Position numbers and translations under genes: made by a program
Assembly: GCA_023248155.1 (NCBI GenBank)
Contig: JAHFFE010000002.1
Coordinates: 197,673-254,863 of the forward strand
Reading direction: 5' to 3'
DNA from: Candidatus Omnitrophota bacterium
GTDB lineage: Bacteria; Omnitrophota; Gorgyraeia; 1-14-0-20-64-10
Length of the DNA stretch: 57,191 nucleotides
Shown here: positions 26,820 to 54,331 of the stretch, piece by piece
Layout of the letters: every line of letters begins with the position of its first letter
Numbering within the stretch: position 1 is the stretch's first letter
Notes under the pieces: generated by a model
The model's database searches: none
Seen by the model: only the letters and a program-made list of their open reading frames with translations
Told to the model about the DNA's origin: nothing

Positions 26820-27729
26820 AAAGAAACCGGCAGAACTTTCCGATCTTTGGAAAGATCGGATCCAGCAGACGATGGATTTTCTGCTGTTGGAGCGGGGCCT
26901 CTCCACCAACACCATTTCCGCCTACCGCCGCGATTTAAAACAGTTCGCGCTCGCGGTCAAAAGCAAGGAACCTTCCGGCATTTCCCGCGCGGAGATTGTC
27001 GACCATTTGATGGAATTGCGCGACGGCGGCATGACCGCATCTTCGGTGGCGCGCAAACTGGTGGCGATTAAAGTGTTTTTCCGGTTTTTACTCTCGCAGA
27101 ATATTTTGCGCGAAGATCCGTCCGGCGCTATTGAGTCGCCGCGGTTAATGAAAGGCCTGCCCGATGTGCTCGACGTGGAAGAGGTCGCCCGTTTGCTGCA
27201 TGCCGCCGATGCCCGCGACGGGAAAAAAGCGCTGCGCGACCGCGCGATGCTGGAACTGATTTACGCGTCCGGACTGCGTGTTTCCGAGGCGGCAAACTTA
27301 AAAATCAGCGATTTAAACCGCGAGGCCGGATTTTTACGCTGTCTGGGCAAGGGCGGGAAGGAGCGGGTGGTTCCGGTCGGCCGCCACGCCCTCGACTGGA
27401 TCGAAAAATACCTCTCGAATGGCCGTGAATCGTTCAAGCCGAAAGCAGAGACCAAGCAATTGTTCGTTAACCGGTTCGGCCGGCCGATTTCGCGGCAGGC
27501 GATCTGGATGATGATCAAATATTACGCGAAAACGGCCCGCATTCGCAAAGAAGTCAAGCCGCATACGCTGCGGCACTCATTCGCCACCCATTTGTTGGAA
27601 GCCGGCGCCGATTTGCGCGTCGTGCAGGAGCTGCTGGGCCATGCCTCAATTGCCACAACGCAGATCTATACGCATGTCGACCGCGCCCGTCTCAAATCGA
27701 TCCATTCCCAGTTCCACCCCCGCGCCTAA
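26806..27729 (+). CDS. xerD: tyrosine recombinase XerD/XerC
   Basis: N-terminal SAM-like domain (LSTNTISAYRRDLKQF). Catalytic contexts GLRVSE, HTLRHSFATHLL and LLGHASIATTQIYTHV. Confidence 0.85.
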   Translation: MKPAKKKPAELSDLWKDRIQQTMDFLLLERGLSTNTISAYRRDLKQFALAVKSKEPSGISRAEIVDHLMELRDGGMTASSVARKLVAIKVFFRFLLSQNILREDPSGAIESPRLMKGLPDVLDVEEVARLLHAADARDGKKALRDRAMLELIYASGLRVSEAANLKISDLNREAGFLRCLGKGGKERVVPVGRHALDWIEKYLSNGRESFKPKAETKQLFVNRFGRPISRQAIWMMIKYYAKTARIRKEVKPHTLRHSFATHLLEAGADLRVVQELLGHASIATTQIYTHVDRARLKSIHSQFHPRA

Positions 27730-27746
27730 AACCGTTCGATATTTTC

Positions 27747-27776
27747 TTGGCATTTTTGCCCTTAATAATGTATAAT
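27747..27776 (+). promoter_or_regulatory. putative sigma70-type promoter of the giant-protein operon
   Basis: TTGGCA (27747-27752), an 18-nt spacer, then TATAAT (27771-27776) inside the AT-rich 135-nt xerD-27865 spacer. GGAAGG lies about 9 nt upstream of the TTG start. Confidence 0.4.
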
Positions 27777-27864
27777 TACTTTACATAAGTTAAGATATTC
27801 TTTACAAAAACAGGATAACCCGATCGACACCAAATACCTGACAAAAACTGGAAGGTTTATTTTT

Positions 27865-30800
27865 TTGTACCGCTTTTTTGCGGGCTTAATAATCCTTTCG
27901 CTAATCCTGCCGCCGCAGTCTGCCTGGGCTCTCCGCGCGGTCTCTGCGAAAGAATCGGCCGGCCTGAAACAGCTCGCCTCCGGATTGGAGGAGAGGATTG
28001 GTTCTCCGGATTCCGACGCTACTGATGCCGAGTTGCTTCGTCAGCTGGATAGTCATCCTCAAACGGATTCCGCCGGACATCCTTACATGAAGACCCTCAC
28101 AGATTTCCATTCGGCTGTGGCGGAACCGCTGTTGAAAAGAAACTCAGGTTTAACAGATTTAGACCGGGACCGCCTGATAAAAACGGTTCTGCCGGGGTTC
28201 AGAGGAGAGATCCGGTTGTTTGATTTAAGTTTTCTGGTGGTTCCCGTCCGCCTGAACACCGATGGATCGATTGACATCGCGCGCCAGGTTCTTGAGCAGG
28301 CGCCGGCCGATCTGTTAATCAATCTGTTTACAAGCTACGACACGGCGGCGCTTCTGCGCTGGGCGGAAATAAACTTGAAGCAAGTGACGCCGTCACCGGC
28401 CATCGGCCGTTTGGAGCGGTTTGTCGCCGGAGGCGCCGATCGCCAAGCAAAGAAAAAAAAGACAAGCCGTCCTTCGGAACCAAAATCCCGGCCGGCGGAT
28501 ACGCTTCCCGCGGCGGAGCAGTTGACTACGGATCTTTTCCTGGGAGATGGGGTAGATTTGGCGGATACGCTTTCCTCCGCCACGCTGGAACTCGGTTTGC
28601 AAGCGCTGCTAAGAGATTCTGATTTGCCGGAACCGCCGCCCGCCGCGGCGGCCGAGCCGGCGTTGCCGCCGCCGGTACCCGGGACGGTGATCAGTTCCTC
28701 TGGACAATTAAAAACGGAAATGGCGCGCCGCGTCCGGGATCTCCATGCCGGAATAATCCCGGACAATATGGTGGTAATGACCGGCAACGGTTTCGACCAG
28801 GACCAGATCAAAATCTCTGTTGGCGCTTTGCCGGGCGCGCCTATTCAGACCGAGGTATTGATTCTTCCGGGACTTTCTCAGCCGGGCGTGTTCCTGCCCG
28901 ACCCTAGAACCGGTTCCGCTTCATCCCTCCCATACCGGATTGTCTGGGATCCGAAGCCTGTTCTGGAGGCATTGAGAAAGAACGTTGTTTTAGAGGAAAT
29001 GAGGGGAATGATGCGGGGGGATATTCAGAGAGCGCAGGACAGCATGCCCTGGCTGAATCGGCTTCTCGATACCGCCGAGCGGCTGTTGGCCGATCAGGGT
29101 GAAGAAGCCCGGATTCAGAACGCCAGAGCGGCTCAGCCGAAGATCGATCAACTGCTGAAAGTTGTTTCGGAAAAAGAAGAGGAGTTTTATCGGCTCTACG
29201 GCCGGTTATCGAGCGTGCTGATCGAGCTGAAAGAACAGGCCGATGAAAATGGCGAAATCCCAAGTGAGTTGGCCCAGGCCCGTTTACAGGAGTTGGCCAC
29301 GCTGTTTTCGGCTTACCCGCGGGCCGAGTACGGCATTCTGGATATTGTCCGGACACTGCCGCAGCAAGATGCCGTATCGCTCCGCGATATTGAAAATGCG
29401 CTGTCGGGCACGAAGGTATTTCTTCAGCGGAATCATAAACAGGAGATTTCCGGCCAGCTTCCCGCCGAAATCATCCTGAATTTTTACCACGACGCGAAAC
29501 GGATTGCGAACAGGCGTTATCTTCAGCAATTGAAACTCCGTTTTCAAGCCGCCGGCGAGGACCCCTCCGACTCCGACCGGGAAGCTGTTTCTCAATTCGC
29601 GTTGGCGGTTTTGTCGGAGGAGACCGGCCATCTGATTTCTAATTGGATATCGAGCAGCCAGGATCGCGCAGGATCGCCGGCCCACCCTCTGCCGGTTTCC
29701 GTGCTGGGCGTGGGGTTTCTCAACGCTCAAAACCAGATGCGATTTATTCCGGGCGGGTTAGTGGAGTACGACATTCCGGCGCAAAGAGAGTTCCATTGGT
29801 CGGCGGACCGGGTTCTTCCCTCCTATCAGGCCGGCGACCGGATCGTGCTGATGCTTCCTTCGCATACCGGCGGGCTGACCCAGAATCAGTTCCACGCGTT
29901 CTTTGAGGGTTGGTTTTACCTGATGAACGAGAATCCGGAGATTCCCGAAATTCTGCTGGCGATCGCCGAAGAAGACGGATCGATCCGTTTGTTACGGCCG
30001 CGCATTCCCGAGCGAGGCAAAGAGGCCTGGGCCACCTTGGCCCGTATTTCAAATGAAATCAACGCCTGTTATCAAACTTCCGCGGAATGGATCAGCCGGA
30101 TGAAAAGTTCCGGATCGAATGCCTGGCTGGTTAACAACATGCGCGCGGCCGGCTCTCTTTTGTCGGTTGCCCAGAAGGCGCAGTCAAGCGATATGTCCGG
30201 AAGAGAATGGTGGATTCGCCGGTTCCGGGTCTCGGAACTCTTTCTCGCTGAGGTTTCTTCTCTTTTTGGGCCGGATGCCGCAGAGGCCGTCAGGGAACAG
30301 TGGAAGGCCGATCCTCGGCACGCAAAAACATTAGAAGATTTGCGTGACCGGCTTAACCTTCCGGATATCGAACAGAAAAGGCCCAGAGAAGTTGCCGCGA
30401 TTCGCCAGCGGGTCAGTTACATCGGCCGAACACCGGAAGATCTCGGTTATGTTTTCGCACCGTTGATTGATTTGGCGGTGGCCGTTGTTGAGGAACGGCA
30501 GGGGGTCGACCTGTTGAACACCCCCTGGATGTTTGAAGAGGTTCCGCTGTTTCCGAATGAGCCGAAACCGGAACAAAAGAAAAAAGATTGGTTTGCCGAA
30601 ACCTGGGCTCTATGGAAGAAAGAAGACCGGTTTCGAAAAAATCCAAGATTTGGCAAGGCAGAAGATGCCGAGCCATTTGCCCGAACCTGGGTGGCGGAGC
30701 GGGTCGCCAAAGCGGTTGATGGGAAAGATCCTGAATTTAAATGGATCGATTTTTCCAAAGCGCTGGAAGCCCACCGGAAGCAGGAGGCCCGGCGCCGGGA

Positions 30801-33800
30801 AGAGATGCGCCAGCGCGTGGAGCAGATGAAATCAGCCGCTGTTACGGCCGCGTCTCCTGAGTCGACCCCTGCTCAACAGACGGAGACGCTGGAACAGTGG
30901 GGCGTTTTGTCCGCCGAATTGACCTCTTCAGAAAGAGCGGAAGTCGAACCGGCGCTGGCCCCGGCGGCCCAGCGGCTGACGCGGCCGCATGGCGCCTGGG
31001 CGCTGGCCGGTTGGGCGCTTAATCATGGGCTGTTTGAACCGGAGTTGCCGGTTTCCAAACTGTTGACTCGGTTGGCATCGCAGTTTCCAACCGGTTCAAA
31101 AATCCGAGACCATGTTTTGATGCGCAGAAATATCGCAGACTTTAATGAAAAAGAAGCTGAGCGAAAAAGCCGCGACGGATCCTCATCGGCTTCGGTTGTT
31201 CCGGCAAAAAATCAAGTTCGGGTTCCTTCGGAAACGCTCGCCGATCTCCTGTTGCTGGCCGAGCAACAGTTGACCGATCTGGACCGCCTGCTTCAGCCAT
31301 TTCCAGAACAACAAGCGGTTATCCGGGAACAGCGCCATTGGGTGCGCAACCTCTGGACAGTGGAAGAGGTGGCTCGGTTGGGCCGCTCGGGCGTCGCTGT
31401 TGACGCCGGTTCGATTCGGATTACTTTCGGCTATTTGGATCGGTTTTCCGCTGATCTGGAACCGGATTTGTTGGAGGCCGTTCATCGATTATCGGGGAGA
31501 TCGGTCCGGCGATGGGTGGATCTCGATCAGAAAAGGATTCATGCGGCTGTTTCCGAATCGATGGCTGCCGGCGATATGCAGGCCGCCTATGCCGATTTGC
31601 TGGCATTGGATCAAACAATGGCAGCTGACGCCCAGATGCTTCGCCAACAGGGCTTTACTCAGGGGGCTTCTGTTTTGGAAACAGCGCGCGTTTCTCTGGC
31701 AATGGCGCTGGCGGCCACCGAAGGGATTCAGAAGAGCGAAGCTCTGGCGAGCCGAGTGACCGCCGATAGCGGTACCGCCGTTCATGCCGAATTGGAAGTC
31801 AACCAGCGGCTTCGTATTCAAGCTGGCCTGGGCTGGATCAGCCGCCTGAACGAAGCCCGCCGCCGCTTGCTGGACCGGTTCTCCGGGGAAGTCGAGCGGA
31901 CCGCTCGCGACCGAATGGCCTCTGTCAATTCGCTTTCCTTTGAACAGGCGGAGGCGCTAAATCGGTCGATCCAGGAAGGAATGGCGTCTCTATCCGAATT
32001 TTCCGACCTGGCTGGCCGCAGGACCGCGCTCTCGGAACTTCGTCAGCAGGTGCGCCGCCGCGCGCTGGCCAGCCCGCAGCAGCCGCCCGCGAAGGCCGCC
32101 CGATTTATTCTTGCGCAGGATGCGTTCCAGACGGCGTTAATCCAGGATAAGGATGTTCGCGCCTGGCTTCGTTCCGTGGCGGAAGGAGATTCCCCAAAAA
32201 ACACAGGAGTTCTTTTACCTCGCGTGACTCGCCAGAGAGCGAAGGGTTCCGGCATTACACAGGAATTCTACACGGCGGTGGAAAATCTGATGAACCCGTC
32301 CGCACCGGAGGCTGTTACCCCTGAAACGATTGTGGAACCAGAAACACCGCCGGAGTCATCAGCTATTTCCACGGAATCAGCGGCGATTGTTTCGGAGCCG
32401 GAACCCGAGCCGCCCGTAGTCATCGTTGCGCCGGTAGTACCCGAAATTTCATCGGCTGCCGTGGAACCGGTTGTGGTGCAAGAACTGGTGCCGGAGCCTG
32501 TTGTAACATCGGAACCGGAATCGCCCCCGGTTGTCATCGTATCGGCGCCCATTGTTGCCGTGCCGGTTTCTACAGCCGTTCTTCCCGCGTCCGAAACCAG
32601 GTGGAAATCCCAAGAAGTTACACTGTTGCCGGACAATTATGTTCGGATAACAACTGCAGATCCAACAGACCTCGTGCAGATGGAGTTTGGCGGCAGGGAA
32701 TGGCTGGGAGTGAAGACTTACCCGGTAGAAAGGATTAATGTAGTCACCTCAAAACATCTGATTCCGGTATCCGGCAATGAACTAGCGGCGGCCGCGCTGG
32801 CAACGGGAGACTGGCGGCAGGCTGCTTCTCTGTTAGGACGGGAGGAAAAACACCAAAAGGCTCACGAAGGGGAGTGGGTTAACAACTCGGTCTTGGTCTA
32901 TGCAGGGGTTGATGACAGGTTCGGCATTGAAAATGAGATTTACTTTCTTTCGCCGGAAGATCTTCAACGGATGCGAGAGGATTTAACTGTGATCACCGGC
33001 AGCCGTAAAACCGGAGCTCTCGGAAAGCAGCGCTTTTTTGAAGCGAGGGCTGTACGGCTCACCGTTCGGTTTAACTCTGAAGATCGGGTTGGAAGCGTCA
33101 TACCGGTGACCGTATTTAACTCGCGTCAACAGTACGGCAGCCCGGTGATTGGAACGGCAGACTCGCTTGGACCGCTTCCGCAATTGCCCAAAACAGTTTC
33201 GTCCCAGATGGTTTCAGCTTCATCGCCTGTTTCGGTCTCTGCGGCTGCGGTTGTGTCCCTATCGCCTACAAAACAAAAACAGCTGTCGAGAGCCGAGCAA
33301 ATAGCGGAGAACAATAATCGGCTCGAGCAATCCCGTGATCCTCAAGAAGTAGCCCAGGTACTGCTTTCCGACGCGCGGTTTTCCCCGGCGATCGATGAGA
33401 ATTTCCGGGTTCCTTCCGAGGACGGCGCGGGCAATCTCCGGTCGTGGCTGGAATCGGTTCGAGATCACAAGACCGATGTTAATCTTGCCAGACAGCTTCA
33501 AAGAACCCGGGCGGCCGTTGATTCGGTGGAAGGCAACAACCGTCAGTTGTTTTATCAGGCATTCGACAGTATGCTTCCATTCGCGTTACAGGAAGCGGGT
33601 GCCAGCGCCGCCGAAAATACTTCCGCTGGTCTGGAAGAAAAGACAATGCCGGTGGCGCAGTTTGAAGAGGAGTACGGAAAACTTTTGGCTGGGCTGAACG
33701 CGGAACATTTGGCCGACCTGAAACACGCGGGCGCCGACTCGGTTATCGTGATTCCGCTGACCGGACAACTGCCGCTTTATGTACAGGGATCGGATTTGTT

Positions 33801-34110
33801 GAAGGCTGTTCGCGATGAGTTTGCCGGCAAACTGGGTGGCGACCGGTTCGCTCCGGAATTAATTACCGAAACTATTGCGTGGCAGAAAATTGGATTGGTC
33901 TTGAAAGATGAAACGCTGGATGAACTCCCATTAAATCCAAACGCACTCCCTATCAGGGACAGTTCCGCTGATAAAATCAATGAGCTGGACCCCGTAGAAT
34001 TGTTGCTGGAGATTTTTAAATCCCATTTGCCGTCCGATTCCGTCCATATGGGTGAAATGCTGTTGACCGATCAATCGGGCCAAACCTATCTGGTTTTACT
34101 TTCCGCATGA
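27865..34110 (+). CDS. giant exported protein P1 (2,081 aa), AGxEE-delimited family, no recognisable catalytic domain
   Basis: Uninterrupted 6.2-kb ORF. Signal peptide ...LPPQSAWA|LRAVS and leader ending in SGLEE (27979-27993). A Pro/Glu/Val linker lies around 32290-32590. AGLEE (33625-33639) precedes a 156-aa terminal module. Confidence 0.8.
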   Translation: MYRFFAGLIILSLILPPQSAWALRAVSAKESAGLKQLASGLEERIGSPDSDATDAELLRQLDSHPQTDSAGHPYMKTLTDFHSAVAEPLLKRNSGLTDLDRDRLIKTVLPGFRGEIRLFDLSFLVVPVRLNTDGSIDIARQVLEQAPADLLINLFTSYDTAALLRWAEINLKQVTPSPAIGRLERFVAGGADRQAKKKKTSRPSEPKSRPADTLPAAEQLTTDLFLGDGVDLADTLSSATLELGLQALLRDSDLPEPPPAAAAEPALPPPVPGTVISSSGQLKTEMARRVRDLHAGIIPDNMVVMTGNGFDQDQIKISVGALPGAPIQTEVLILPGLSQPGVFLPDPRTGSASSLPYRIVWDPKPVLEALRKNVVLEEMRGMMRGDIQRAQDSMPWLNRLLDTAERLLADQGEEARIQNARAAQPKIDQLLKVVSEKEEEFYRLYGRLSSVLIELKEQADENGEIPSELAQARLQELATLFSAYPRAEYGILDIVRTLPQQDAVSLRDIENALSGTKVFLQRNHKQEISGQLPAEIILNFYHDAKRIANRRYLQQLKLRFQAAGEDPSDSDREAVSQFALAVLSEETGHLISNWISSSQDRAGSPAHPLPVSVLGVGFLNAQNQMRFIPGGLVEYDIPAQREFHWSADRVLPSYQAGDRIVLMLPSHTGGLTQNQFHAFFEGWFYLMNENPEIPEILLAIAEEDGSIRLLRPRIPERGKEAWATLARISNEINACYQTSAEWISRMKSSGSNAWLVNNMRAAGSLLSVAQKAQSSDMSGREWWIRRFRVSELFLAEVSSLFGPDAAEAVREQWKADPRHAKTLEDLRDRLNLPDIEQKRPREVAAIRQRVSYIGRTPEDLGYVFAPLIDLAVAVVEERQGVDLLNTPWMFEEVPLFPNEPKPEQKKKDWFAETWALWKKEDRFRKNPRFGKAEDAEPFARTWVAERVAKAVDGKDPEFKWIDFSKALEAHRKQEARRREEMRQRVEQMKSAAVTAASPESTPAQQTETLEQWGVLSAELTSSERAEVEPALAPAAQRLTRPHGAWALAGWALNHGLFEPELPVSKLLTRLASQFPTGSKIRDHVLMRRNIADFNEKEAERKSRDGSSSASVVPAKNQVRVPSETLADLLLLAEQQLTDLDRLLQPFPEQQAVIREQRHWVRNLWTVEEVARLGRSGVAVDAGSIRITFGYLDRFSADLEPDLLEAVHRLSGRSVRRWVDLDQKRIHAAVSESMAAGDMQAAYADLLALDQTMAADAQMLRQQGFTQGASVLETARVSLAMALAATEGIQKSEALASRVTADSGTAVHAELEVNQRLRIQAGLGWISRLNEARRRLLDRFSGEVERTARDRMASVNSLSFEQAEALNRSIQEGMASLSEFSDLAGRRTALSELRQQVRRRALASPQQPPAKAARFILAQDAFQTALIQDKDVRAWLRSVAEGDSPKNTGVLLPRVTRQRAKGSGITQEFYTAVENLMNPSAPEAVTPETIVEPETPPESSAISTESAAIVSEPEPEPPVVIVAPVVPEISSAAVEPVVVQELVPEPVVTSEPESPPVVIVSAPIVAVPVSTAVLPASETRWKSQEVTLLPDNYVRITTADPTDLVQMEFGGREWLGVKTYPVERINVVTSKHLIPVSGNELAAAALATGDWRQAASLLGREEKHQKAHEGEWVNNSVLVYAGVDDRFGIENEIYFLSPEDLQRMREDLTVITGSRKTGALGKQRFFEARAVRLTVRFNSEDRVGSVIPVTVFNSRQQYGSPVIGTADSLGPLPQLPKTVSSQMVSASSPVSVSAAAVVSLSPTKQKQLSRAEQIAENNNRLEQSRDPQEVAQVLLSDARFSPAIDENFRVPSEDGAGNLRSWLESVRDHKTDVNLARQLQRTRAAVDSVEGNNRQLFYQAFDSMLPFALQEAGASAAENTSAGLEEKTMPVAQFEEEYGKLLAGLNAEHLADLKHAGADSVIVIPLTGQLPLYVQGSDLLKAVRDEFAGKLGGDRFAPELITETIAWQKIGLVLKDETLDELPLNPNALPIRDSSADKINELDPVELLLEIFKSHLPSDSVHMGEMLLTDQSGQTYLVLLSA

Positions 34111-37100
34111 GGAAGATATCCGTTTTATTACTGGTCGCGTTTCTGGCCAATTCTATTCCTGCGTACGCATTGCGCGTCGAGCAGCCGGAACATCCTGCTT
34201 CCCAATTCACTCTGGCGCGACGACTTAATGACTCTTCCGGGTTGGAAGAAGTCAAACCTCTGTGGACCACTGATCTGGGAAAAAACCGGATTTGGCAAAC
34301 GAGTTTACTGCCTGGAGCCCAACGCCGGATCGCGGCCATCACAACAACATTTCTTCATATCGGAGATCTTCAGGAATCACCGGTGCCAGCGTTGAATTTG
34401 AAGACGGTTTCTTTGCAACTAAAGTCGTCCGAAAGTTATCGAGGCATGGTCGTCGGCCCTGTCACCGATTCCGGCAATCAATTTCTAGCCATGGGATCAA
34501 CCAGCGGCAGAGTGGTCGTCCGCGACCTGAATTCCGAGGATGCTCCTACTGTTGTTTTAGGCGACACCAGGAGTTTTCAGGCCAGCGGCAGTGTGGCGAT
34601 TGATCCCGACGGAAAAACTGTATTTGTCACAGGAATAAATTCTCGGGTTCACGCCTGGAATATGGAGACGCAGACAGCGGTTCCCAATCATCCGACAGCT
34701 TCTTTTTTTGAGCCGGACTCCAATGAAGCGAAATTCATTCAGGACTCGGACAAGCGGTTGACGGCGCTCACGGGCAAAAGCCAGATTCAGATATGGGATT
34801 CGCGAGATCAGACCGGATGGCGGTGGCGGCCGTCTAAGTTAGGGGATTTGTCTGTTTCGCAATTCAGCCGCACCGGAAAATTGATCGCGGTTGCTCAGAA
34901 CAATGTTATTCATCTTTTTCCCACGGATGACCGGGATAGAGTCAGGACTCTTAAAGAGGCGCGAATGGGGAAAGAAATAACCAGCCTTGCCTTCAGTCCT
35001 GATTCCGAGTATTTGATTGCGGGGGACAAACGGGGCATTCTTCACATGTGGAATATTGCGAGTTCGCGCGCGACGGAATCCAACGCCCAAATTCAGGCGC
35101 ACGAGGGGCCGATCTCTTCGTTGTTTTTTTATACCGACAAACTATCGGGCCGTACCGCCCTGGTTTCGTCCGGCCATGACGGCAATGTCAAAGCGTGGGA
35201 CTTGGCCGCCTTGATTTCCGCCGGGCTGGAAGAAGATCTGCCGGATGAATTAGTGAGGGCGACTTTTTCGGGGGAAAGAGTTCCTGTGCGGGTTCTCGAT
35301 CTGGCGAGGGATAGGCCGTTCTTCAACGCGGTTTACACCGCGCCCGATGAACAAGTTAAAGGGTTTGTCCCCATCGCTCGTCTTTTTCATGATCCTGGAG
35401 AGCGAATGCGAGTCAACCAAAAATGGGACCGTCTAATGGCCAACGGTGATGAGCCGATCATGGCCCGGGTTGATTTGCAGGGCGGAGAGTTGCATTTTTA
35501 TCCCGATCTGGAGCTGAACGCGCTGGACAGCGCGCTGAATCGCTTACTGACCGATGTGGAAAAGATGGTTGGCGCATCTCCTCTTGGTCTGCCTGCTCAG
35601 GTAGTTAAGCGGGTCACCGGAGGGAAAGGGGCCGAGGTCCTCTATCGGCTCGAAGATGGCAGTGGCCGCGGGGGGCGCGGCTACCTAACAGTTGCTGGAG
35701 ACTACTCCAACTGGCTCCAGCAGCAAATCGGACATGAGATCCGCGTCACTCCGGTAGGGGTCGACCGCGACAGGAGCGAACGGCAGGTGATTTTCCGGCC
35801 CGCCGGATTGCCGTTGAACAAAGGTGCTTTGCTGGAGCAGAAACTGCTTGAGAGATCGGTGCCATCCGATGAAATTGAGAGCTTTCTTGATCGGCAGTTA
35901 CTTCAGGACAGGGAACTGCCGAAACTGTTGATCCCGATTTACGAGCATAGCCGTTCCCGCGTATGGAGAAATATGACGCGTTCGCACCGGCTTGCGGTTT
36001 TGCGCTGGCTGGCAGGCAGAAGCGATTCCGCCGATGCCGACCTGGCCGGCTGGTTGTTCCACATGTTTGCTCGGGCCTCGAAGGATCCAATGCATGGGCG
36101 GACCATCCAGGCCTGGGCTCTGCGCGGCATGGCGGGTGCCGCTCGAGATGACGCGCAAACGGAAACCGCGCGGCAAAGCGTCGAAGCGTGGTTTCAGCGG
36201 ACGCCTCTTCCCGAACCGAAACACACGGCGATTCTGGATCCGGTCGTTTATGAATTGTTCGGGTGGCCCCAAGATGCCTACGCGCTTTCTTTGGATGTCC
36301 AAGCCCGTTTCTCCGCGGGCCAGGAAGAAAACACCGCGGCCTGGGACGCTCTGCAGGACAAGATCAATAAGGAGACTCCAATCAAAGTGCGTATTGGGGA
36401 GGTTCTCCACGCCAGTAAAAGTGTAGCCATCCGTTATAGCCATGATGGAGAAGATCTTCCTGGAGTAATGCCTTTTCCTGCTATAGAAAACCTTCCATCA
36501 TCTTACTTGGCGGATTTGTTCTTGCTTCAAAAAGGGCAGGAAATCGATGTTCTTCCAAAACAGATTATCATCGACGACTTAAACCGGAAGCAATTCACTG
36601 CTTTTGTGGGAATTGCTGAATTTGATTTTCTGGGTCAGCGCCTGCAGGCGATACGAGAAATTCAGCGGGCTGCGGCCAGTGGTGTGGAAATTGAAATGGA
36701 ATTATTAGGAGTAGTGAATAAAGAAAGAGGAGTTGTTGCATTCAAATATCAATCGTCTGCTGGAGACGTTGTTTTTAAAACCTATTTAAGCCGGTTTTTC
36801 TCAACAGGAGTAACTGGAAATTATCCTGTTCACACTGTGAATAGTTGGGTAGCGTATCATACCGGGAAGAGTAAAAGAGTAAAAATTATTCCGACGGAAT
36901 TTCAAAAGGGCGGCTCTTACCCGCAGGTTTATTTCAAGGTGAACCTGTCTAACGAGGAGCTGAATCAGGAAATTTGGCATGGACGGGCTGAGCTTAAGCA
37001 GAAGTTTGATCAAGGTCATACGGTCGATTTCGGAGTGGAATGGTTTTCTCATAACAGCGTGCAAGTCTTTTATATTGGAGAACAGGGATGGGCGCGAACG

Positions 37101-38735
37101 ATTGTTCCCATGAGTTTGCTGTTTGATGCTTCAGAGCAGGTTTCGCTGGATGATACCCAGGAGTGGGTTTTGCGGAGTGTCGGTGATTTATGGAGAGGGG
37201 TTCCATTGGTTTCCAACAGAGACGGTTCGGGCTATCCTATCGTTGGTAATCCCAAATTTTCTGCTCGTCGGGCATTAGATCAAGTAGAACCGGCTCTTCA
37301 AGAACTGCGCGAAATGGCTGGACGATCGGTTCCTCCGGAAATTACGGTCATCGCGCGAATGGCCAATTCCAATGGATTGGCCGTTCTTTATGAAGGGAAA
37401 AATGGTTCATGGAAAAGAGGATATATTGATATTCGCGAGGTTAAGCCAACCGGCGCAAGTCCTGAACAGCGTCGCCAGTGGATGAATCAAGCCATAGACC
37501 GCAAAATCCACGTTACGCTCAGAGCAATCAAAACCCCAGAATCTTCCACCAAGGTATATTTTTCCTGGCCGGACCCTGAGCGGGATTTGCACGATGATTT
37601 TGGCGCCGGGATACTTGGCGCCGGCCAGGAAGAAGCGTATGCCTATATGGGTCGCTTTATGGATAAAGATCCTTTGGTGCGCCGTGCCGCGCGCAATGAA
37701 TTGTTGAGACGGGGTGACGCCGCCATACCGATTGTCATCGAACTGTTTGGATTGATAAGTAATTCGCGTATTGAAATGGTTCAAACCGTTCGCGTGCTGG
37801 CCGCCGAAAATCCTTCATTTATTTCTCATGTCATAGAGCCGATCCGCCGGCATCTGGATGGAGATCCTGAATGGGGAAGTTATACTCCTTTGCGTAACGC
37901 ATTAATGACGCTCTCTGCGCTGAGTCCGGAGCAGGCTTCTGACGCGATTCCGTTGCTGGAGCGGTTGTTATCGAGAGAAGAACGCAACCGTGTTATAGGA
38001 TTCGATCCCGACTTTAGCAATCAAGGACATACCTGGTCGGTCTGGATATTTCCCTATGCGTTTCAGGCAATTCGCCAACTTTCTTCCAGTCGATATAATG
38101 AAATGCTTGCCCAATGGACTGTTTATAAAAATTCTGGGCCGGAAATTTACAGATTCTTGGTGAATTCTATTCTTGAAAATCTTGAACGGATCGATCAGGA
38201 AAGAGGCATTCCGCACGCCGATGCGTGGGCTTCCACGGAACCGTTGATTGAGGCGGCTGTTCAGCCGGTGCATCAGCTGGCCGAGCAGGAAAAGCCGCTG
38301 ATTGTACTGGTTAGATCCGATATGGTGCGCGGCGATCGGGAGGATATTCCTTGGGAACAAATTTCCAGACAGTTGTCGGAATTAACCGGCTATCCGTCGA
38401 TTCAGGTCGATGATTCTTCTTCATCTCGAGTGTTGGGATATCAGAGAAGCGGAAATACAATCATTCATCTGGTTCCGGAAGATTTTCCTGCAGGGTATGA
38501 GCGTGTTATGCTCAACACGGTCCGCGTGAAATTAGGCACGAATAAGGATGTTGAGAGGGACATGTTTAGTATTGAGCTGCATGCGTTACCGGGTGTCATT
38601 ACCGGTGCGTTGGCGCACTGGCAACAGTATCAAAACGAAGCACAAATTCCTGTTTTTAACGCAATTCCATATATGAATTTGAACCTGCTTTCCGCGGCCG
38701 ATGTCTGGCAGATTCTCGCCGATCAGTTTGCGTAA
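34107..38735 (+). CDS. giant exported protein P2 (1,542 aa): WD40-like propeller + S1/OB-like repeats + HEAT-like region, AGxEE-delimited family
   Basis: An ATGA overlap joins it to the P1 stop. Signal peptide ...NSIPAYA|LRVE with SGLEE at 34236-34250. WD-type blades are visible (e.g. GHDGNVKAWDL, GDKRGILHMWNI). About six S1-like modules follow, with AG[LQ]EE at 35220, 36315 and 37620. Confidence 0.8.
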   Translation: MRKISVLLLVAFLANSIPAYALRVEQPEHPASQFTLARRLNDSSGLEEVKPLWTTDLGKNRIWQTSLLPGAQRRIAAITTTFLHIGDLQESPVPALNLKTVSLQLKSSESYRGMVVGPVTDSGNQFLAMGSTSGRVVVRDLNSEDAPTVVLGDTRSFQASGSVAIDPDGKTVFVTGINSRVHAWNMETQTAVPNHPTASFFEPDSNEAKFIQDSDKRLTALTGKSQIQIWDSRDQTGWRWRPSKLGDLSVSQFSRTGKLIAVAQNNVIHLFPTDDRDRVRTLKEARMGKEITSLAFSPDSEYLIAGDKRGILHMWNIASSRATESNAQIQAHEGPISSLFFYTDKLSGRTALVSSGHDGNVKAWDLAALISAGLEEDLPDELVRATFSGERVPVRVLDLARDRPFFNAVYTAPDEQVKGFVPIARLFHDPGERMRVNQKWDRLMANGDEPIMARVDLQGGELHFYPDLELNALDSALNRLLTDVEKMVGASPLGLPAQVVKRVTGGKGAEVLYRLEDGSGRGGRGYLTVAGDYSNWLQQQIGHEIRVTPVGVDRDRSERQVIFRPAGLPLNKGALLEQKLLERSVPSDEIESFLDRQLLQDRELPKLLIPIYEHSRSRVWRNMTRSHRLAVLRWLAGRSDSADADLAGWLFHMFARASKDPMHGRTIQAWALRGMAGAARDDAQTETARQSVEAWFQRTPLPEPKHTAILDPVVYELFGWPQDAYALSLDVQARFSAGQEENTAAWDALQDKINKETPIKVRIGEVLHASKSVAIRYSHDGEDLPGVMPFPAIENLPSSYLADLFLLQKGQEIDVLPKQIIIDDLNRKQFTAFVGIAEFDFLGQRLQAIREIQRAAASGVEIEMELLGVVNKERGVVAFKYQSSAGDVVFKTYLSRFFSTGVTGNYPVHTVNSWVAYHTGKSKRVKIIPTEFQKGGSYPQVYFKVNLSNEELNQEIWHGRAELKQKFDQGHTVDFGVEWFSHNSVQVFYIGEQGWARTIVPMSLLFDASEQVSLDDTQEWVLRSVGDLWRGVPLVSNRDGSGYPIVGNPKFSARRALDQVEPALQELREMAGRSVPPEITVIARMANSNGLAVLYEGKNGSWKRGYIDIREVKPTGASPEQRRQWMNQAIDRKIHVTLRAIKTPESSTKVYFSWPDPERDLHDDFGAGILGAGQEEAYAYMGRFMDKDPLVRRAARNELLRRGDAAIPIVIELFGLISNSRIEMVQTVRVLAAENPSFISHVIEPIRRHLDGDPEWGSYTPLRNALMTLSALSPEQASDAIPLLERLLSREERNRVIGFDPDFSNQGHTWSVWIFPYAFQAIRQLSSSRYNEMLAQWTVYKNSGPEIYRFLVNSILENLERIDQERGIPHADAWASTEPLIEAAVQPVHQLAEQEKPLIVLVRSDMVRGDREDIPWEQISRQLSELTGYPSIQVDDSSSSRVLGYQRSGNTIIHLVPEDFPAGYERVMLNTVRVKLGTNKDVERDMFSIELHALPGVITGALAHWQQYQNEAQIPVFNAIPYMNLNLLSAADVWQILADQFA

Positions 38736-38768
38736 GGCTGTGCTATCATAGTCTATTCTGCGAGCTTT

Positions 38769-38842
38769 GCGCTCGTAGCTCAGCTGGATAGAGCACTAGC
38801 CTCCGAAGCTAGGGGTCGCGCGTTCAAATCGCGCCGAGCGCG
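38769..38842 (+). tRNA. tRNA-Arg (anticodon CCG)
   Basis: Hand-folded cloverleaf. Acceptor stem is GCGCTCG/CGAGCGC. Anticodon arm is CTAGC-CTCCGAA-GCTAG. T-arm is GCGCG-TTCAAAT-CGCGC. Discriminator is G with no CCA, followed by TTTTTT. Confidence 0.9.
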
Positions 38843-38848
38843 TTTTTT

Positions 38849-38926
38849 ATGTCATCCTGAGATCGTTTTTGCTCAGGATCTTGATAACAAATGCAAGATG
38901 CTGAACAAAAAATTTTCAGCATGACA
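38849..38926 (+). repeat. two-hairpin repeat family C, copy 1
   Basis: ATGTCAT-[ATCCTGAG..CTCAGGAT]-ATCTT..-[ATGCTGAA..TTCAGCAT]-GACA. The first ~36 nt align with 50256-50291. Confidence 0.6.
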
Positions 38927-38981
38927 AGGGTATTGATCGGGCAATAATCGATGGACATATTTGAATAGAGAGAAGGTTTTT

Positions 38982-50251: not shown

Positions 50252-50255
50252 AAAA

Positions 50256-50321
50256 ATGTCATTCCGAGATGGTACTTGCTCGGAATCTTAGATCCTGAGC
50301 AGAAACAATCTCAGGATGACA
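50256..50321 (+). repeat. two-hairpin repeat family C, copy 2
   Basis: ATGTCAT-[TCCGAG..CTCGGA]-ATCTTAG-[ATCCTGAG..CTCAGGAT]-GACA, located in the pgsA-pgpA spacer. Confidence 0.6.
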
Positions 50322-50341
50322 GCGTGGGGTGCCTGATCTCC

Positions 50342-50782: not shown

Positions 50783-50788
50783 AAAACT

Positions 50789-53700
50789 ATGATTTATATG
50801 CTAAAATTATTTAACAATAACATGTCTCGCCAGAATTTTTCTTTTGCCCGCTTTTTTGCGGCTTTATTAGCCGTTGCGCAGATCTTTTGCGTAACCGTGA
50901 CGCCTTCCTACGCGCTGCGCGCTGTTTCTCCGTCGGAATCTCGCCCTGATTTGCAAACCCGCCTCTCGGGGCAGGAAGAGCCAGTCAGGGTTTTTGACGC
51001 GTTTAGGCGGTCGGAGGTCAATCCGGAAATCGGGGCCCGCGTCGCAAATTTTCTGATTGGAACGGGCGCGCAAATGCGTGTAGCGCAGGTCGAGATGAAT
51101 CAAACTCTGCCCATTTATTCCAATCCGCACGACGAATATTATTTGATTCTGTCCGGCCGGGGGCTTCTTCAGACGGGCACTCTCGCCGGCAAGGTGGGCT
51201 CTGGAGATTTAATCCGGATTCCGGCCGGATCACCCCATACTATTACGGCTGTTGGCGAGGAATCTCTGACGCTGGCCTTTTTCTATCGGGGTTCGTACCA
51301 GAGAGCCTTGAGGCCGGAAGTTCCGGTTCTTTCCGGCGAAACGCCCGCCGGCCGCGGCCGCTATTTTCTGGAAATCGCCAAGCTCAATGGAGACAGCGAG
51401 AGTGAACTGTTTGTTGGAGAACGGCTCTCGATCCGTTTGTATCAAAAGCGGGGTCGCGTTAACCGTTCTTTTACTCCAGACCGCCAAACCCTCTTGTATG
51501 TAACGACAGGCGAAATGGAACTTGCATTCAATGCAAGTGGTCAACAGTTTTCGTTGAGAAAAGAAAGCGGAATAGTTATTCCGGCCGGCATGATTGTTCA
51601 TTTATCCGGTAAGCATAGTGCTCGCTTTCTTTTAATTTCTGCGTTGGATCGTTTGACGGTTGGAAATTATCGCGAACTTGCCGTGGTGTTGCAGCGTTAT
51701 CACGGCCTGCCGCTTGAAAATCCGCCGGCCAATTCTCCAGCGTATGAGCGCCTGCGCAGTTTGGATAATTATTCCGGCACCAATGGAATTTATCAGTTAA
51801 CAGCCGATCTTCAGGCGGCCAGGGATGCCGGATTATTGCGAATCACAAATCTTTTAGAACAGGACTTGAATCCCCAAAATTTCTACGATGGTTTGCCGGC
51901 ATCTATAAAACGCGATAGAGAATTTCCCGCTCCGAAACTGTCGTGGAAAGACTATTTCAACATTCAGGTTCTTTTGCGGAACTCTCCTGAGCTCTATCGA
52001 GACCCGGAGGGACTTCGAAAACTTGCGGATCAGCAAGAAATAGCACCGGCCGCACTTTGGCATACATTTCATTCCGAGTTTGGTGAACAACTTGGCTGGG
52101 GAGCTATCGCTCAATTCAGAACCGTTCGTCAAGCGGCGGCCACCGCCGGCATGGAAGAGGCGAAGGTGGAAGATTTCTTCGACGAGATTCCGGCGGCCGA
52201 TGCGAACGAGTTCAAGGTGGCAGTGATGGTGCCGGTCAGTGATGCCACGATTGATCGGCTCAGCAAAGAGGGGTATCACATCTACCGCATAAAACCTCAG
52301 AAGGAACCGCTGGGAATTATCGGCGCTGAGAGAACGCGCGCGCTCATTCAAAAAATAAACCCAGATTACCTGATGATCTTTGTGAATGATTCTGTCGATG
52401 AAGAACTTTTGAAGCCGGAGGTGACGCCGAATCTGAAAGGGATTGCCCACATGGGCCTTGGTTTTGGCAATATCACAAAAGCTGCGCGCAAACTTGCCGC
52501 TGAGCGGAAAATCCAGCTTTCCTATGCCGGTGATCCGAGGGTCAGCCGCAATGTGCTTTATAATGCCACTGCCGAGATGGCCGAAACACTGTTGCTGACC
52601 CGCTGGTATGATTTGCTCCGGAATGTCCATCCAAAGATTGGGGTTTTTTCTGAAGGCCAAATCTTGGGAGTTCAACTCCAGGCCTACATTGCCTCTGCCG
52701 GAGGAAATGTTTCCGAGTTAGAGCGGCGAGAGATTCAAGTAGCCGATTTGTTGTGGGCGCAGATGTTTCGGCAGATGAAGCGAGTCGATGCGGCGGTTGA
52801 GTTAGCTCGACAGGGCAAATTTCTCGGAGCAGGGAACGGGGCTGATCGCACGGTCCGAAATTATCAGCTGACAAGACAGCGGGAATTGGGAAAGGCGCCC
52901 AGCCTGGGAATGGTGGGATCTCTGACGATGATTCGCCGCTGGGCCTCGCTTGCCGCCACGCATGGTCTGGATGATCTCTATTATGCTGATCCCAGCGGCG
53001 ACCGGTTCCCGGAACGGGAGGCGTTTCAAATGGGTTTGTCCGTCGGAACTGTGGAGGAAGTGGCGCTGAGTTCCGATTTTCTGTTGCTGGCTCCGGGCAC
53101 GGGCACTGTTTTAACGGCGGATCTGCAGGTGGCTCAAGCGCTGTCCAGAAAGAATCCCGTTTTAAGAGTGGATCCTGCCCAATGGATCTGGACCGGCCCT
53201 GATCTGCAGCTGTTTCTGCCGGACCGGTCGTTGCAAAATCAAACCATCGGTTTTTACGGTTTGGGAACCATCGGCGGAACAGCGGCCTCATTTTTAAAAC
53301 GATTCGGCGCGAATATCATCGCCGTGGTTCGTCATCCCGACGATTACAGGTCCATTGGAGAACGGCTGAATGTCTCGTTTGTTTCTCCGGAACAGATCTG
53401 GCGGAAGGCGCGGCTGGTGTTGTTGTCTCTGCCTGCGGATGCGGGGCAGGTGGTGACGCCTGAGATTTTAGATGACCCAACGACAATCACGGAATTAATC
53501 GGCAACATCGGCCGTGGAGACGCGGTTGCGGGTACTCTTTCAGAAGAAGAAAGCTTCGTGCAGGCGTTGCTTAGAACCGGCAGGGCGTACTCCACGGATG
53601 TTCTTCCGAATGAAAAACTGGAATGGCAGAAACAGCCGTTGAGGGCGCTCGTAGAAAGCGGGCAGGCCATTGTGAGCTCTCATATTGCCAGCAACGCCGA

Positions 53701-54331
53701 GAACCCGCTGACAAAAATCAGCGTGCGCGGCTTGATGGAAGGCACCGCTGTGAACAACCTGCTGGTGATGCGGCATAATCAGTTGCAGCCTGGTGACCCC
53801 AGACCATTACCCAATCCGATTCCTGCGCCGGCCGGCCAGGAGGAAGTTGCTGCTGCGGAACAGCGGGTAGCGGCTGTTATCGATCAGCTTGTCAGAAAAT
53901 CGCAATTTTCCGTTAAGCAAAAGGTGGTAGCGATCGGTCCCAGCGTCTATCAATCAAAAGACTACGACTTCCTGCCGGCTTTTGTTGAAACATATTTTGG
54001 CCCTGTTCAAGAACGAATATTTTTTGATCCGGTGAATCCGCAGAACAGAGAATCTGTCTGGGATACTCAATTTGATTGGAATGCCGGTGACGGGGAATAT
54101 GGAAAACGGGTTGATTTGGTGAGCTATCTGGGGTCTAGCGATGAACAATCTGATTTTAATCGGTGGGCGCAAACTCACTTGCAGGTCAATTTTTCCACAT
54201 TGCATTGGCAAAAAGAGCCGGCGAAATTTTTGCATGAGCTGCTCAGGGAGCTGGCCCTTCCTTTCAACATCCTTTCTGTTAATGAGGATCAACAACTGCA
54301 GGCCGACCTGGAGCTTCTCGTTTCCTCTTAA
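50789..54331 (+). CDS. giant exported protein P3 (1,180 aa): tandem cupins + D-2-hydroxyacid-dehydrogenase-like NAD domain, AGxEE-delimited family
   Basis: Signal peptide ...VTVTPSYA|LRAVS with SGQEE at 50966-50980. Cupin motifs (HDEYYLILSGRG...IRIPAGSPH; LLYVTTGEMEL...VIPAGMIVH). AGMEE is at 52145. The Rossmann region has GLGTIGGTAASFLKRFGANIIAVVRHPD plus NIGRG, DVLPNE and SSH. AGQEE is at 53831. Met12 (50822) is an alternative start. Confidence 0.8.
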   Translation: MIYMLKLFNNNMSRQNFSFARFFAALLAVAQIFCVTVTPSYALRAVSPSESRPDLQTRLSGQEEPVRVFDAFRRSEVNPEIGARVANFLIGTGAQMRVAQVEMNQTLPIYSNPHDEYYLILSGRGLLQTGTLAGKVGSGDLIRIPAGSPHTITAVGEESLTLAFFYRGSYQRALRPEVPVLSGETPAGRGRYFLEIAKLNGDSESELFVGERLSIRLYQKRGRVNRSFTPDRQTLLYVTTGEMELAFNASGQQFSLRKESGIVIPAGMIVHLSGKHSARFLLISALDRLTVGNYRELAVVLQRYHGLPLENPPANSPAYERLRSLDNYSGTNGIYQLTADLQAARDAGLLRITNLLEQDLNPQNFYDGLPASIKRDREFPAPKLSWKDYFNIQVLLRNSPELYRDPEGLRKLADQQEIAPAALWHTFHSEFGEQLGWGAIAQFRTVRQAAATAGMEEAKVEDFFDEIPAADANEFKVAVMVPVSDATIDRLSKEGYHIYRIKPQKEPLGIIGAERTRALIQKINPDYLMIFVNDSVDEELLKPEVTPNLKGIAHMGLGFGNITKAARKLAAERKIQLSYAGDPRVSRNVLYNATAEMAETLLLTRWYDLLRNVHPKIGVFSEGQILGVQLQAYIASAGGNVSELERREIQVADLLWAQMFRQMKRVDAAVELARQGKFLGAGNGADRTVRNYQLTRQRELGKAPSLGMVGSLTMIRRWASLAATHGLDDLYYADPSGDRFPEREAFQMGLSVGTVEEVALSSDFLLLAPGTGTVLTADLQVAQALSRKNPVLRVDPAQWIWTGPDLQLFLPDRSLQNQTIGFYGLGTIGGTAASFLKRFGANIIAVVRHPDDYRSIGERLNVSFVSPEQIWRKARLVLLSLPADAGQVVTPEILDDPTTITELIGNIGRGDAVAGTLSEEESFVQALLRTGRAYSTDVLPNEKLEWQKQPLRALVESGQAIVSSHIASNAENPLTKISVRGLMEGTAVNNLLVMRHNQLQPGDPRPLPNPIPAPAGQEEVAAAEQRVAAVIDQLVRKSQFSVKQKVVAIGPSVYQSKDYDFLPAFVETYFGPVQERIFFDPVNPQNRESVWDTQFDWNAGDGEYGKRVDLVSYLGSSDEQSDFNRWAQTHLQVNFSTLHWQKEPAKFLHELLRELALPFNILSVNEDQQLQADLELLVSS

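Follow-up and report, generated by a model that had tools for sequence, protein, structure and literature searches.

Long Omnitrophota proteins that share a leader, a pentapeptide at module junctions and conserved C-terminal domains

The Omnitrophota are widespread, ultra-small and apparently host-dependent bacteria, and the most conspicuous trait of their genomes is their very long, multi-domain, signal-peptide-bearing proteins. Omnitrophota proteins of 10–147 thousand amino acids (kAA) are on record (Nielsen & Lui 2026, bioRxiv 10.64898/2026.06.07.730766). Long multi-enzyme Omnitrophota proteins with signal peptides have also been published together with the hypothesis that they are cleaved into several products, an idea that, in the searchable text of the report, rests on C39 peptidase domains (West-Roberts et al. 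2023, bioRxiv 10.1101/2023.11.21.568195). Here, we describe a family of long proteins that we came to through a stretch of 57,191 nucleotides from Candidatus Omnitrophota (assembly GCA_023248155.1, contig JAHFFE010000002.1, positions 197,673 to 254,863 of the forward strand), referred to below as the window. Two of its members, p1 and p2, are encoded by overlapping genes, and a third, p3, lies further along the window. Members share an N-terminal leader, a pentapeptide that recurs between modules, and a small number of C-terminal domain types.

The closest known kind is that of the long, multi-domain, signal-peptide-bearing Omnitrophota proteins. As far as the searchable text of the two reports goes, those giants and the present family have in common the phylum, the N-terminal signal peptide, fast evolution with mostly singleton clusters, and the tiling of unrelated domains (WD40, HEAT, methyltransferase-like, HATPase_c, ROK and hydrolases). 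They differ in that the giants are catalogued from at least 10 kAA upwards, whereas our family spans 0.2–6.3 kAA and lacks the C39 peptidase; the same text mentions no conserved leader, inter-module pentapeptide, shared C-terminal domain or cysteine depletion. The Archaeovorin/Dockerin-type giant genes, described there as at least 10–30 kAA long with dockerin, TSP3, C39-peptidase and SecA-like domains, do not include p1 and p2, which are shorter and matched none of those domains. An earlier reading of this DNA from its letters alone (the original prediction) had called p1 and p2 giant, which beside proteins of 10–147 kAA (Nielsen & Lui 2026) is a relative label only. It had also held that no described system is organised like this one. 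That remains true of the layout of leader, AGLEE and C-terminal domain, which we found in neither Pfam, NCBIfam nor the searchable literature, where nothing relevant to the motif or to any sorting or processing signal in Omnitrophota turned up; it is too broad for long exported multi-enzyme proteins and for the idea of their cleavage, both of which had been published.

The three proteins of the window and their parts are as follows (ORF, open reading frame; aa, amino acids).

27865..34110, + strand: p1 ORF, TTG start, 2,081 aa, comprising leader, one 1,877-aa passenger, AGLEE and type-1 C-terminal domain
27865..27930, + strand: signal-peptide-like segment of p1, MYRFFAGLIILSLILPPQSAWA (aa 1–22), Kyte-Doolittle 1.64, with the A-W-A/L-R junction common to family members
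27931..27993, + strand: p1 leader, LRAVSAKESAGLKQLA followed by SGLEE (aa 23–43; motif at 27979–27993)
29137..30060, + strand: p1 mid-block domain (aa ~425–732), containing FFEGWFYL...RPRIP
32302..32595, + strand: p1 Pro/Glu/Val-rich linker (aa 1480–1577, 98 aa), including hydrophobic PVVIVSAPIVAVPVSTAVL
33625..33639, + strand: second motif of p1, AGLEE (aa 1921–1925), directly before the C-terminal domain
33640..34107, + strand: p1 type-1 C-terminal domain (aa 1926–2081), last residues LVLLSA
34107..38735, + strand: p2 ORF, ATG start, 1,542 aa, comprising leader, WD40 module, modules B, C and D and a type-2 C-terminal tail
34107..34250, + strand: p2 leader, signal-peptide-like over aa 1–21 (...IPAYA), then LRVEQPEHP..., with SGLEE at 34236–34250
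34404..35216, + strand: p2 WD40 beta-propeller module (aa ~100–370)
35220..35234, + strand: AGLEE of p2 (aa 372–376) at the end of the propeller; the BLAST block against the second gene of contig L094 begins exactly here
36315..36329, + strand: AGQEE of p2 (aa 737–741) between modules B and C
37620..37634, + strand: AGQEE of p2 (aa 1172–1176) before module D and the C-terminal tail ending ILADQFA
50789..54331, + strand: p3, 1,180 aa, comprising leader, cupin module, 2-hydroxyacid-dehydrogenase-like NAD-binding module and type-3 C-terminal domain, with motifs at 50966, 52145 and 53831

Along their length, p1, p2 and p3 have no homology to each other. They share a leader, in which a hydrophobic segment runs to A-[WY]-A and is followed by L-R and, 14–20 residues on, by SG[LQ]EE, and they carry nine copies of [SA]G[LQM]EE (p1 aa 39 and 1921; p2 aa 44, 372, 737 and 1172; p3 aa 60, 453 and 1015), where amino-acid composition would predict 0.05 (P = 4e-18). 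The other + strand ORFs of the window contain no copy. On this evidence the three proteins do form one architectural family, as the original prediction had proposed for p1, p2 and the 1,180-aa protein at 50789. They are also nearly free of cysteine, with one in ~4,760 mature residues of p1, p2 and p3 together against 0.89% in 33 other genes of the window (P = 2e-17); the 2,081 aa of p1 contain one, while p2 and the 2,753-aa product of L094 gene 2 contain none.

An exhaustive HMMER search of 1.84 billion representative proteins with five conserved blocks of p1, p2 and p3 (E <= 1e-3) found 60 family proteins. Since p1 also has positional orthologues on contigs L003, L092, L093, L094 and L095, and p2 has an orthologue on L094, the label ‘orphan’ that had been given to the pair has to be dropped. 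The C-terminal module of p1 matches the last ~160 residues of 29 further proteins of 88–5,476 aa (E down to 1.9e-78), and that of p3 the last ~165 residues of 11 further proteins (E 1.9e-38); in proteins of 88–6,251 aa, both always match the extreme C-terminus. Two members are NCBI ‘hypothetical proteins’ of Omnitrophota metagenome-assembled genomes (MAGs), MBI1953088.1 and MBI4313322.1, and the clusters that we looked up have at most five members each. Judging by these matches, the family has so far been seen solely in Candidatus Omnitrophota. Word-index searches with p1, p2 aa 372–1542 and a four-leader profile gave self hits or nothing, with the limits that long queries swamp the candidate list and that a 40-aa profile falls short of significance against 5.8 billion sequences. 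Scanning metagenomes with the p1 and L003 alignment returned nothing, and a scan with a four-sequence alignment of the C-terminal domain returned three loci.

Most full-length members follow a common layout. A basic and then hydrophobic N-terminus ends in P-x-x-A-[YWH]-A, L-R comes directly afterwards or after a short insert, and 6–30 polar residues lead to one or two copies of [SA]-G-[LMQV]-E-E (often two, 10–14 residues apart), beyond which the modules are arranged with further copies at their junctions. In most members the last copy stands 133–180 residues before the C-terminus, directly ahead of the C-terminal domain; the distance is 160 aa in p1, 165 aa in p3 and 148 aa in L094 gene 2. 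It is 370 aa in p2, where the copy ahead of the type-2 tail has degenerated, while the orthologue L094 gene 2 keeps it. Each polypeptide has one leader and one C-terminal domain, both in one-gene loci (L003, L092, L093 and L095) and in two-gene loci (the window and L094). Passenger modules across the members include WD40, cupin, dehydrogenase, alpha/beta hydrolase, HATPase_c and, by eye, a methyltransferase-like segment. The smallest complete member, P0018 (215 aa), consists of the leader, two AGLEE copies and the C-terminal domain, with no passenger at all.

Across the 60 proteins there are 124 motif copies in 79.6 kAA (67 AGLEE, 14 AGMEE, 13 SGLEE and 8 AGQEE), an enrichment of ~120-fold over a control of six-frame ORFs from 79 unrelated loci, which gave 10 copies in 763 kAA. 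The flanks are unconserved, with a mere preference for P or S at -2 and for A, S or T at -1. Some genes adjacent to family members (L093 1–1501; L096 1–2648; L091 9526–10848) have the same motif ~140–175 aa before an Ala-terminated C-terminus; they encode proteins of 2,222 aa (hydrolase, ROK, epimerase), 2,229 aa (FBPase, transaldolase) and 440 aa.

Comparison of relatives shows that the pentapeptide marks points of module insertion and duplication between orthologues. Between p3 and P0006 (2,160 aa) there are four BLAST blocks bounded by motif copies: the leader to the first copy, 61–438/380–754, 452–1022/993–1555 and 1015–1180/1995–2160. Two extra modules of P0006, an alpha/beta hydrolase (69–378) and an unrecognised module (1553–1994), sit exactly between motif copies. 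The orthologue of p2 is the second gene of L094 (2,753 aa), with blocks of 64%, 73% and 46% identity. The 73% block runs motif to motif (p2 736–1169 against 1107–1555); module C of p2 (737–1171) corresponds to aa 1108–1552 of L094 gene 2. In addition, p2 372–1214 matches L094 gene 2 1553–2403 at 46%, starting at a motif copy in both proteins, and this second match is a duplicated module pair.

The leader is the best conserved part of p1. On a Candidatus Omnitrophota MAG contig, L003, which has the best match to the polynucleotide phosphorylase (PNPase) of the window (71% identity, against 53–58% for other Omnitrophota), the genes run xerD, a single 1,443-aa ORF, tRNA-Arg(CCG) and rbfA. That ORF is a fast-evolving p1 orthologue in which both motif positions are retained (AGLEE and AGVEE) and three colinear blocks align:

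Leader block (p1 aa 8–43, including part of the signal peptide): 72% identity over 36 aa, E 1e-10
Mid block: 25% identity over 323 aa, E 6e-13
C-terminal 170 aa: 33% identity over 171 aa, E 8e-17

The p1 leader is conserved to the same degree as PNPase, and the body has become hardly recognisable, which points to selection on the leader. Every family member keeps the Leu-Arg that follows the presumed signal peptidase cut (p1 aa 23–24, p2 aa 22–23 and p3 aa 42–43). In L094 gene 2 (18453–18700) the Leu-Arg lies 17 residues further from the hydrophobic segment, and it therefore behaves as a separate element.

By manual criteria, the N-termini look like Sec-type signal peptides, in agreement with what had been predicted for p1 and p2. 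In both, a basic residue precedes a hydrophobic stretch of ~12–15 residues that ends in A-W-A or A-Y-A, and p1, p2 and p3 all show a basic n-region, an h-region of 10–15 residues and A-x-A at -3/-1. Each protein has one hydrophobic segment, the Pro-rich stretch of p1 excepted. Tat export of the window proteins was considered and rejected: there is no S/T-R-R-x-F-L-K (p1 has MYR, p2 MRK and p3 a single R) and no Pfam or NCBIfam Tat-signal match. Some relatives do have RRF; the counterpart of TRRFIFL in P0004 is TGRFIFL, which lies untranslated ahead of the p1 start.

The C-terminal modules have no match in Pfam or NCBIfam, and the type-1 and type-3 profiles found nothing among Protein Data Bank (PDB) sequences. 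An AlphaFold2 model of the type-1 domain, built from a 28-sequence alignment (A3), has a predicted local distance difference test score (pLDDT) of 89.6 and a predicted template modelling (TM) score of 0.80. It describes a 155-aa alpha/beta fold in the order b-a-a-b-b-a-b-b-b-a-a-b-b, with five helices packed with strands. AGLEE occupies positions 15–19 of the model, in a low-confidence N-terminal stretch, and the confident fold is predicted to start at position 20. A Foldseek search with the model gave at best E 0.13 in the PDB, with TM-scores of 0.3–0.5 (small flavodoxin-like or PTS-IIB domains), and nothing at E <= 1e-3 in BFVD. The near-invariant residues of the same alignment are L, G, N-P, L, L and L; since no candidate catalytic nucleophile is among them, an enzymatic role, self-cleavage included, is unlikely. 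Homology between types 1 and 3 is unsupported (hhalign probability 2%). In the type-3 domain the motif runs straight into a stretch that by eye is helix-like, AGLEEVAAARERV. The last residue is Ala in nearly all tail types and Ser in p3 itself (LVLFSA, LLIQA, LRFSA, LEQAA, LLKAA and ADQFA); the rule is broken by ...DQFV of L094 gene 2 and by P0009. The position of the second p1 motif, directly before the type-1 domain, reads AGVEE in L003 and AGQEE in P0004.

What lies between leader and tail is harder to recognise. Whether searched whole or as 500-aa pieces, p1 matches nothing in Pfam, NCBIfam, PADLOC, PHROGs or PDB sequences, in line with the original prediction that it has no recognisable domain; the KKKK patch and the Pro/Glu/Val linker of ~100 aa that had been read in it are both there, the former at aa 196–199. 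Its mid block, which likewise has no Pfam match, recurs in 15 other long proteins in addition to the L003 orthologue and is present in three copies in P0008. Within the linker, PVVIVSAPIVAVPVSTAVL (32527–32583, p1 aa 1555–1573; Kyte-Doolittle 2.13) stands inside two PPVVIV..AP.V repeats. The stretch may span the membrane or serve as no more than a hydrophobic linker, and nothing similar was found in the L003 orthologue.

For p2, the propeller is well supported (PF00400 at 41.8 bits against a cut-off of 27, PF12894 at 23.3 against 22.9, and many beta-propeller families besides) and went unmentioned in the original prediction. Beyond it, there is just a weak HEAT_2 hit right after the motif at aa 1172–1176. 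The last 160 aa of p2 match only P0054 (E 1.7e-4) and L094 gene 2. PADLOC reported a hit in the propeller region alone (PDLC02919 HEAT-ARM_XIII, aa 158–369), PHROGs was empty, and a three-sequence profile of module C had no PDB match. Six S1/OB-like repeats that we had suspected by eye in aa 384–1158 were dropped: a leave-one-out profile was weak, with two of the six units beating all 300 shuffles, and hhalign against 60 PNPase S1 domains gave a probability of 0.6%. A single-sequence AlphaFold2 model of aa 372–1542 (pLDDT 37) was not used.

We tentatively favour, at somewhat less than an even chance, a reading of p1 and p2 as exported pre-pro-polyproteins in which the pentapeptide serves as a processing or recognition site. 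The N-terminal segment would carry the protein across the inner membrane via Sec, and signal peptidase I would cut after A-x-A. The pentapeptide would be recognised by a dedicated enzyme, an endopeptidase or else a transpeptidase of the sortase kind, which would take off the short propeptide, part the modules from each other and release the C-terminal domain; that domain would be a sorting, docking or assembly module and not an enzyme. The freed modules (WD40 scaffolds and cofactor-dependent enzymes) might then work on the cell surface or inside a host cell, which would fit the host-dependent lifestyle proposed for Omnitrophota. A larger claim, which we regard as possible and hold more loosely, is that a new Omnitrophota processing and sorting system, which exports multi-enzyme polyproteins and cuts them into modules, recognises the pentapeptide, the A-L-R leader and the Ala-terminated C-terminal domains as its substrate signals. 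Such a system could rank with sortase/LPXTG, exosortase/PEP-CTERM and PorU with the C-terminal domains of the type IX secretion system (T9SS), and the same system could serve much longer Omnitrophota proteins.

Several observations weigh against a processed polyprotein. The case for cleavage itself comes from a sequence signature, and the search for candidate enzymes found no protease in the window or the neighbourhoods; no peptidase or secretion gene recurs beside family loci, where the window and the neighbourhoods that we examined hold only housekeeping genes. With two motif copies around a passenger of 1,877 aa, p1 would offer little to cut. Many passengers are NAD-, S-adenosylmethionine- or ATP-dependent folds (2-hydroxyacid-dehydrogenase-like, HATPase_c, ROK and FBPase) with no obvious use outside the cytoplasm, and such modules make little sense extracellularly unless they are delivered into a host cell. 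The existence of passenger-free members such as P0018 implies that the C-terminal domain is not solely a sorting tag. Cysteine depletion is weaker in some members (12 in 3,274 aa of P0009 and 9 in 3,459 aa of P0008), and an Arg at +2 is unusual for Sec substrates, as known from export studies in E. coli.

The main rival is export without cleavage, with the proteins working whole as long multi-domain scaffolds, either periplasmic or at the surface. The motif would then be a linker element or a docking motif whose partner might be a surface scaffold, a chaperone or an outer-membrane secretion component, and the C-terminal domain would anchor or oligomerise. We consider this rather unlikely, if still a serious contender. 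Tandem leader motifs 10–14 aa apart would suit multivalent binding as readily as redundant cleavage, members reduced to leader and C-terminal domain would fit a self-assembling subunit, a structural role for the motif would be possible where it leads into the helix-like segment of type 3, and an uncleaved scaffold would call for no protease in the neighbourhoods. It accords less well with five strict residues between free flanks and with flexible P/S/A-rich linkers at the module junctions, which have the look of a classic processing site; moreover, a motif placed 6–30 aa past the signal peptide leaves a tiny N-terminal piece that would be awkward as a docking element.

A lesser rival, which we judge improbable, takes the N-terminal segment for an uncleaved membrane anchor and leaves the bulk in the cytoplasm, so that the family would consist of membrane-tethered multi-enzyme proteins with the motif as a cytoplasmic linker or processing site. 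The passengers are indeed cofactor-dependent enzymes of a cytoplasmic type, and the Arg at +2 would disfavour Sec export. However, the basic n-region ahead of the hydrophobic stretch would keep the N-terminus inside and place everything after it outside, and the stretch closes with P-x-x-A-x-A, a standard site for signal peptidase I. Near-zero cysteine would not be expected of cytoplasmic enzymes, and, the p1 linker aside, each protein has a single hydrophobic segment. Among Omnitrophota proteins of at least 10 kAA, the searchable text of one report gives 46% as predicted to be anchored with a cytoplasmic bulk (bioRxiv 10.64898/2026.06.07.730766), which speaks for such an arrangement.

Two further explanations have very little left to recommend them. 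The first, that the repeat is a nucleic-acid signal, either an internal Shine-Dalgarno-like GGAGGAG, at which translation would pause or start afresh between modules, or a recombination site for module shuffling, draws on CTG-GAG-GAG containing GGAGGAG, on mostly G-ending codons for the third residue (L, M, Q or V) and on a Met 3–4 residues past the motif in type-1 C-terminal domains, but is largely refuted by codon usage at the 38 motif copies for which we have DNA. There, every position varies synonymously: the two Glu codons are GAG:GAA 19:19 and 24:14 against a background of 52:48, Gly codons are at background frequencies, Leu is encoded by TTG, CTG, CTT and CTC, Met follows within six residues in seven of the 38, and GGAAGAA, the commonest form in the window, pairs poorly with the anti-Shine-Dalgarno sequence. 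Codon variation at background ratios therefore leaves the translational and recombination readings unsupported, and the constraint acts on the peptide and not on the DNA.

The second, about as remote, is membership of a characterised class of large exported proteins: repeats-in-toxin (RTX) proteins of the type I secretion system, autotransporters, Bap/LapA-type adhesins, S-layer proteins, polymorphic or multifunctional autoprocessing RTX (MARTX) toxins, or T9SS cargo. The resemblance is general only (a signal peptide, variable passenger and conserved C-terminal domain as in the type V secretion system (T5SS) or T9SS, and modules as in MARTX), and no Pfam or NCBIfam match was found to RTX repeats, autotransporter barrels, T9SS C-terminal domains, SLH, CPD peptidase or adhesin repeats. 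The type-1 fold has no PDB neighbour, and the C-terminus lacks the aromatic last residue of outer-membrane proteins. Pfam sees neither the C-terminal beta-barrel of autotransporters nor, for RTX, HemolysinCabind, and an N-terminal signal-like segment is present.

The likenesses are still instructive. T9SS cargo, like our family, has an N-terminal signal, several conserved types of C-terminal domain and a processing point just before that domain. The T9SS domain is a beta-sandwich of ~80 aa that is removed by PorU, and the system is characteristic of Bacteroidota; our 155-aa alpha/beta domain, in contrast, matches no type A or B sorting domain, and the motif has further copies in the leader and at the passenger-module junctions. 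MARTX toxins and viral or phage polyproteins similarly carry independent modules on one chain with a short conserved site between them, and G-[LMQV]-E would fit what we take to be the S/A/G-x-E-type site, cut after the E, of giant-phage prohead proteases, which is a lead only. The family differs in its Sec-type signal, no cysteine protease domain, prohead protease or phage context was found, p1, p2 and p3 hold no peptidase domain and lack a cysteine nucleophile, and cleavage is putative. Cellulosomal enzymes are comparable as diverse passengers with a small C-terminal module able to dock on a common scaffold, and dockerin-type giant proteins exist in Omnitrophota according to the searchable part of the literature; here, however, there is no dockerin (PF00404) match, and the C-terminal domain is twice as long with another predicted fold.

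The genes themselves are real. Two long ORFs with an overlapping stop and start do lie between xerD and tRNA-Arg, as first described, and they are translationally coupled. The expression signals at the locus are as follows.

27747..27776, + strand: promoter-like TTGGCA-18-TATAAT in the 135-nt spacer between xerD and p1; a consensus match only
27850..27855, + strand: Shine-Dalgarno-like GGAAGG, 9 nt upstream of the p1 TTG start, read from sequence
34107..34110, + strand: ATGA overlap of the p1 stop and p2 start, in the context gcATGAgg
38768..38843, + strand: tRNA-Arg(CCG), 32 nt past the p2 stop

The near-consensus promoter that had been proposed for the spacer agrees at 11 of 12 positions and is the top site of the 13 kb scanned (26500–39500), but the total of eight promoter-like matches in that interval is no higher than in shuffles (6.8 +/- 2.7). 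The 3' stem of the tRNA with its T-run is terminator-like, and an Rfam scan matched the tRNA alone. An assembly chimera, a possibility that had been raised at the outset, is ruled out by the identical p2 protein and the two-gene counterpart on L094. Gene calls on three contigs, which come from at least two separate assemblies (ENA ERZ27280021 and Logan SRR14366787), give this very p2 sequence, and since it recurs on independent assemblies the genes are no artefact of assembly; on the related contig L094, two genes are arranged in the same way and meet in the same GCATGAG junction.

Going upstream from p1, xerD (Pfam Phage_integrase) ends at 27729 and is preceded by a small ORF and ligA; downstream of p2, the tRNA gene is followed by rbfA, a DHH phosphoesterase gene, truB, ribF, rpsO and pnp. 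The remaining genes of the window are housekeeping genes (recG, plsX, fab genes, smc, rib genes, sodC, ftsK, rodZ, pgsA and pgpA). The site between xerD and tRNA-Arg-rbfA holds a family member in every related contig examined, and the tRNA-Arg gene follows it also in L003, L092, L093 and L095:

L095: 1,142 aa
L003: 1,443 aa
This window: 2,081 + 1,542 aa
L092: 3,459 aa
L094: 4,666 + 2,753 aa, with the same GCATGAG overlap
L093: 6,251 aa, with the leader in frame upstream and missed by the database start call

A second site lies between pgpA and ligT, where p3 is found in the window and where its positional counterpart P0012 (1,962 aa) has WD40 passengers and the same type-3 tail. P0009 lies between ispG and proS in another MAG. 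The family sits at fixed sites among housekeeping genes, and module content and length change fast there. The original picture of a unit placed into syntenic DNA does not survive this comparison, as the site is conserved and always occupied, and only its content varies.

Some further observations were made around these loci. The small ORF upstream of p1 (26289–26819, + strand, 176 aa) has a lipoprotein-type N-terminus (LLFGMVGC) and no Pfam or NCBIfam match, and it overlaps the start of xerD; the interval between ligA and xerD in L003 and L092–L095 holds an unannotated ORF of 174–194 aa, comparable in size and place. The 378-aa protein encoded right after p3 (54477–55613, + strand) begins like a signal peptide, is extremely acidic and rich in Pro, Glu and Asp beyond that, and has neither a Pfam match nor an A-L-R/AGLEE leader. 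G+C content is 0.48–0.53 over the 3' half of p2 and over p3 (36000–39000 and 50000–55000), against 0.56–0.60 in the flanking housekeeping genes. The riboflavin-synthesis genes enclose an ankyrin-repeat protein (19816–20709, + strand) and a PEGA and HEAT-repeat protein (21771–23021, + strand); the PEGA-HEAT gene recurs in L095, and in L089 a HEAT-repeat gene precedes pgsA. Toxin-antitoxin pairs occur near family members, namely PIN and RHH in L093 (1542–2176) and, by eye, ribbon-helix-helix-like and MazF-like ORFs in L087 (1964–2544).

Up to now, the export route of long Omnitrophota proteins, and whether they act intact or as fragments, has been argued solely from protease domains. The polyprotein reading fits the published suggestion that such proteins are cleaved and sharpens it. 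The motif at module junctions, the conserved leader and the new C-terminal domains are handles that could make the cutting of long proteins testable, and the motif supplies a rule for splitting unannotatable Omnitrophota proteins into functional units. The layout may be general to the long proteins of the clade, central-metabolism enzymes included. The family also marks fixed genomic sites, between xerD and tRNA-Arg and between pgpA and ligT, at which modules turn over rapidly.

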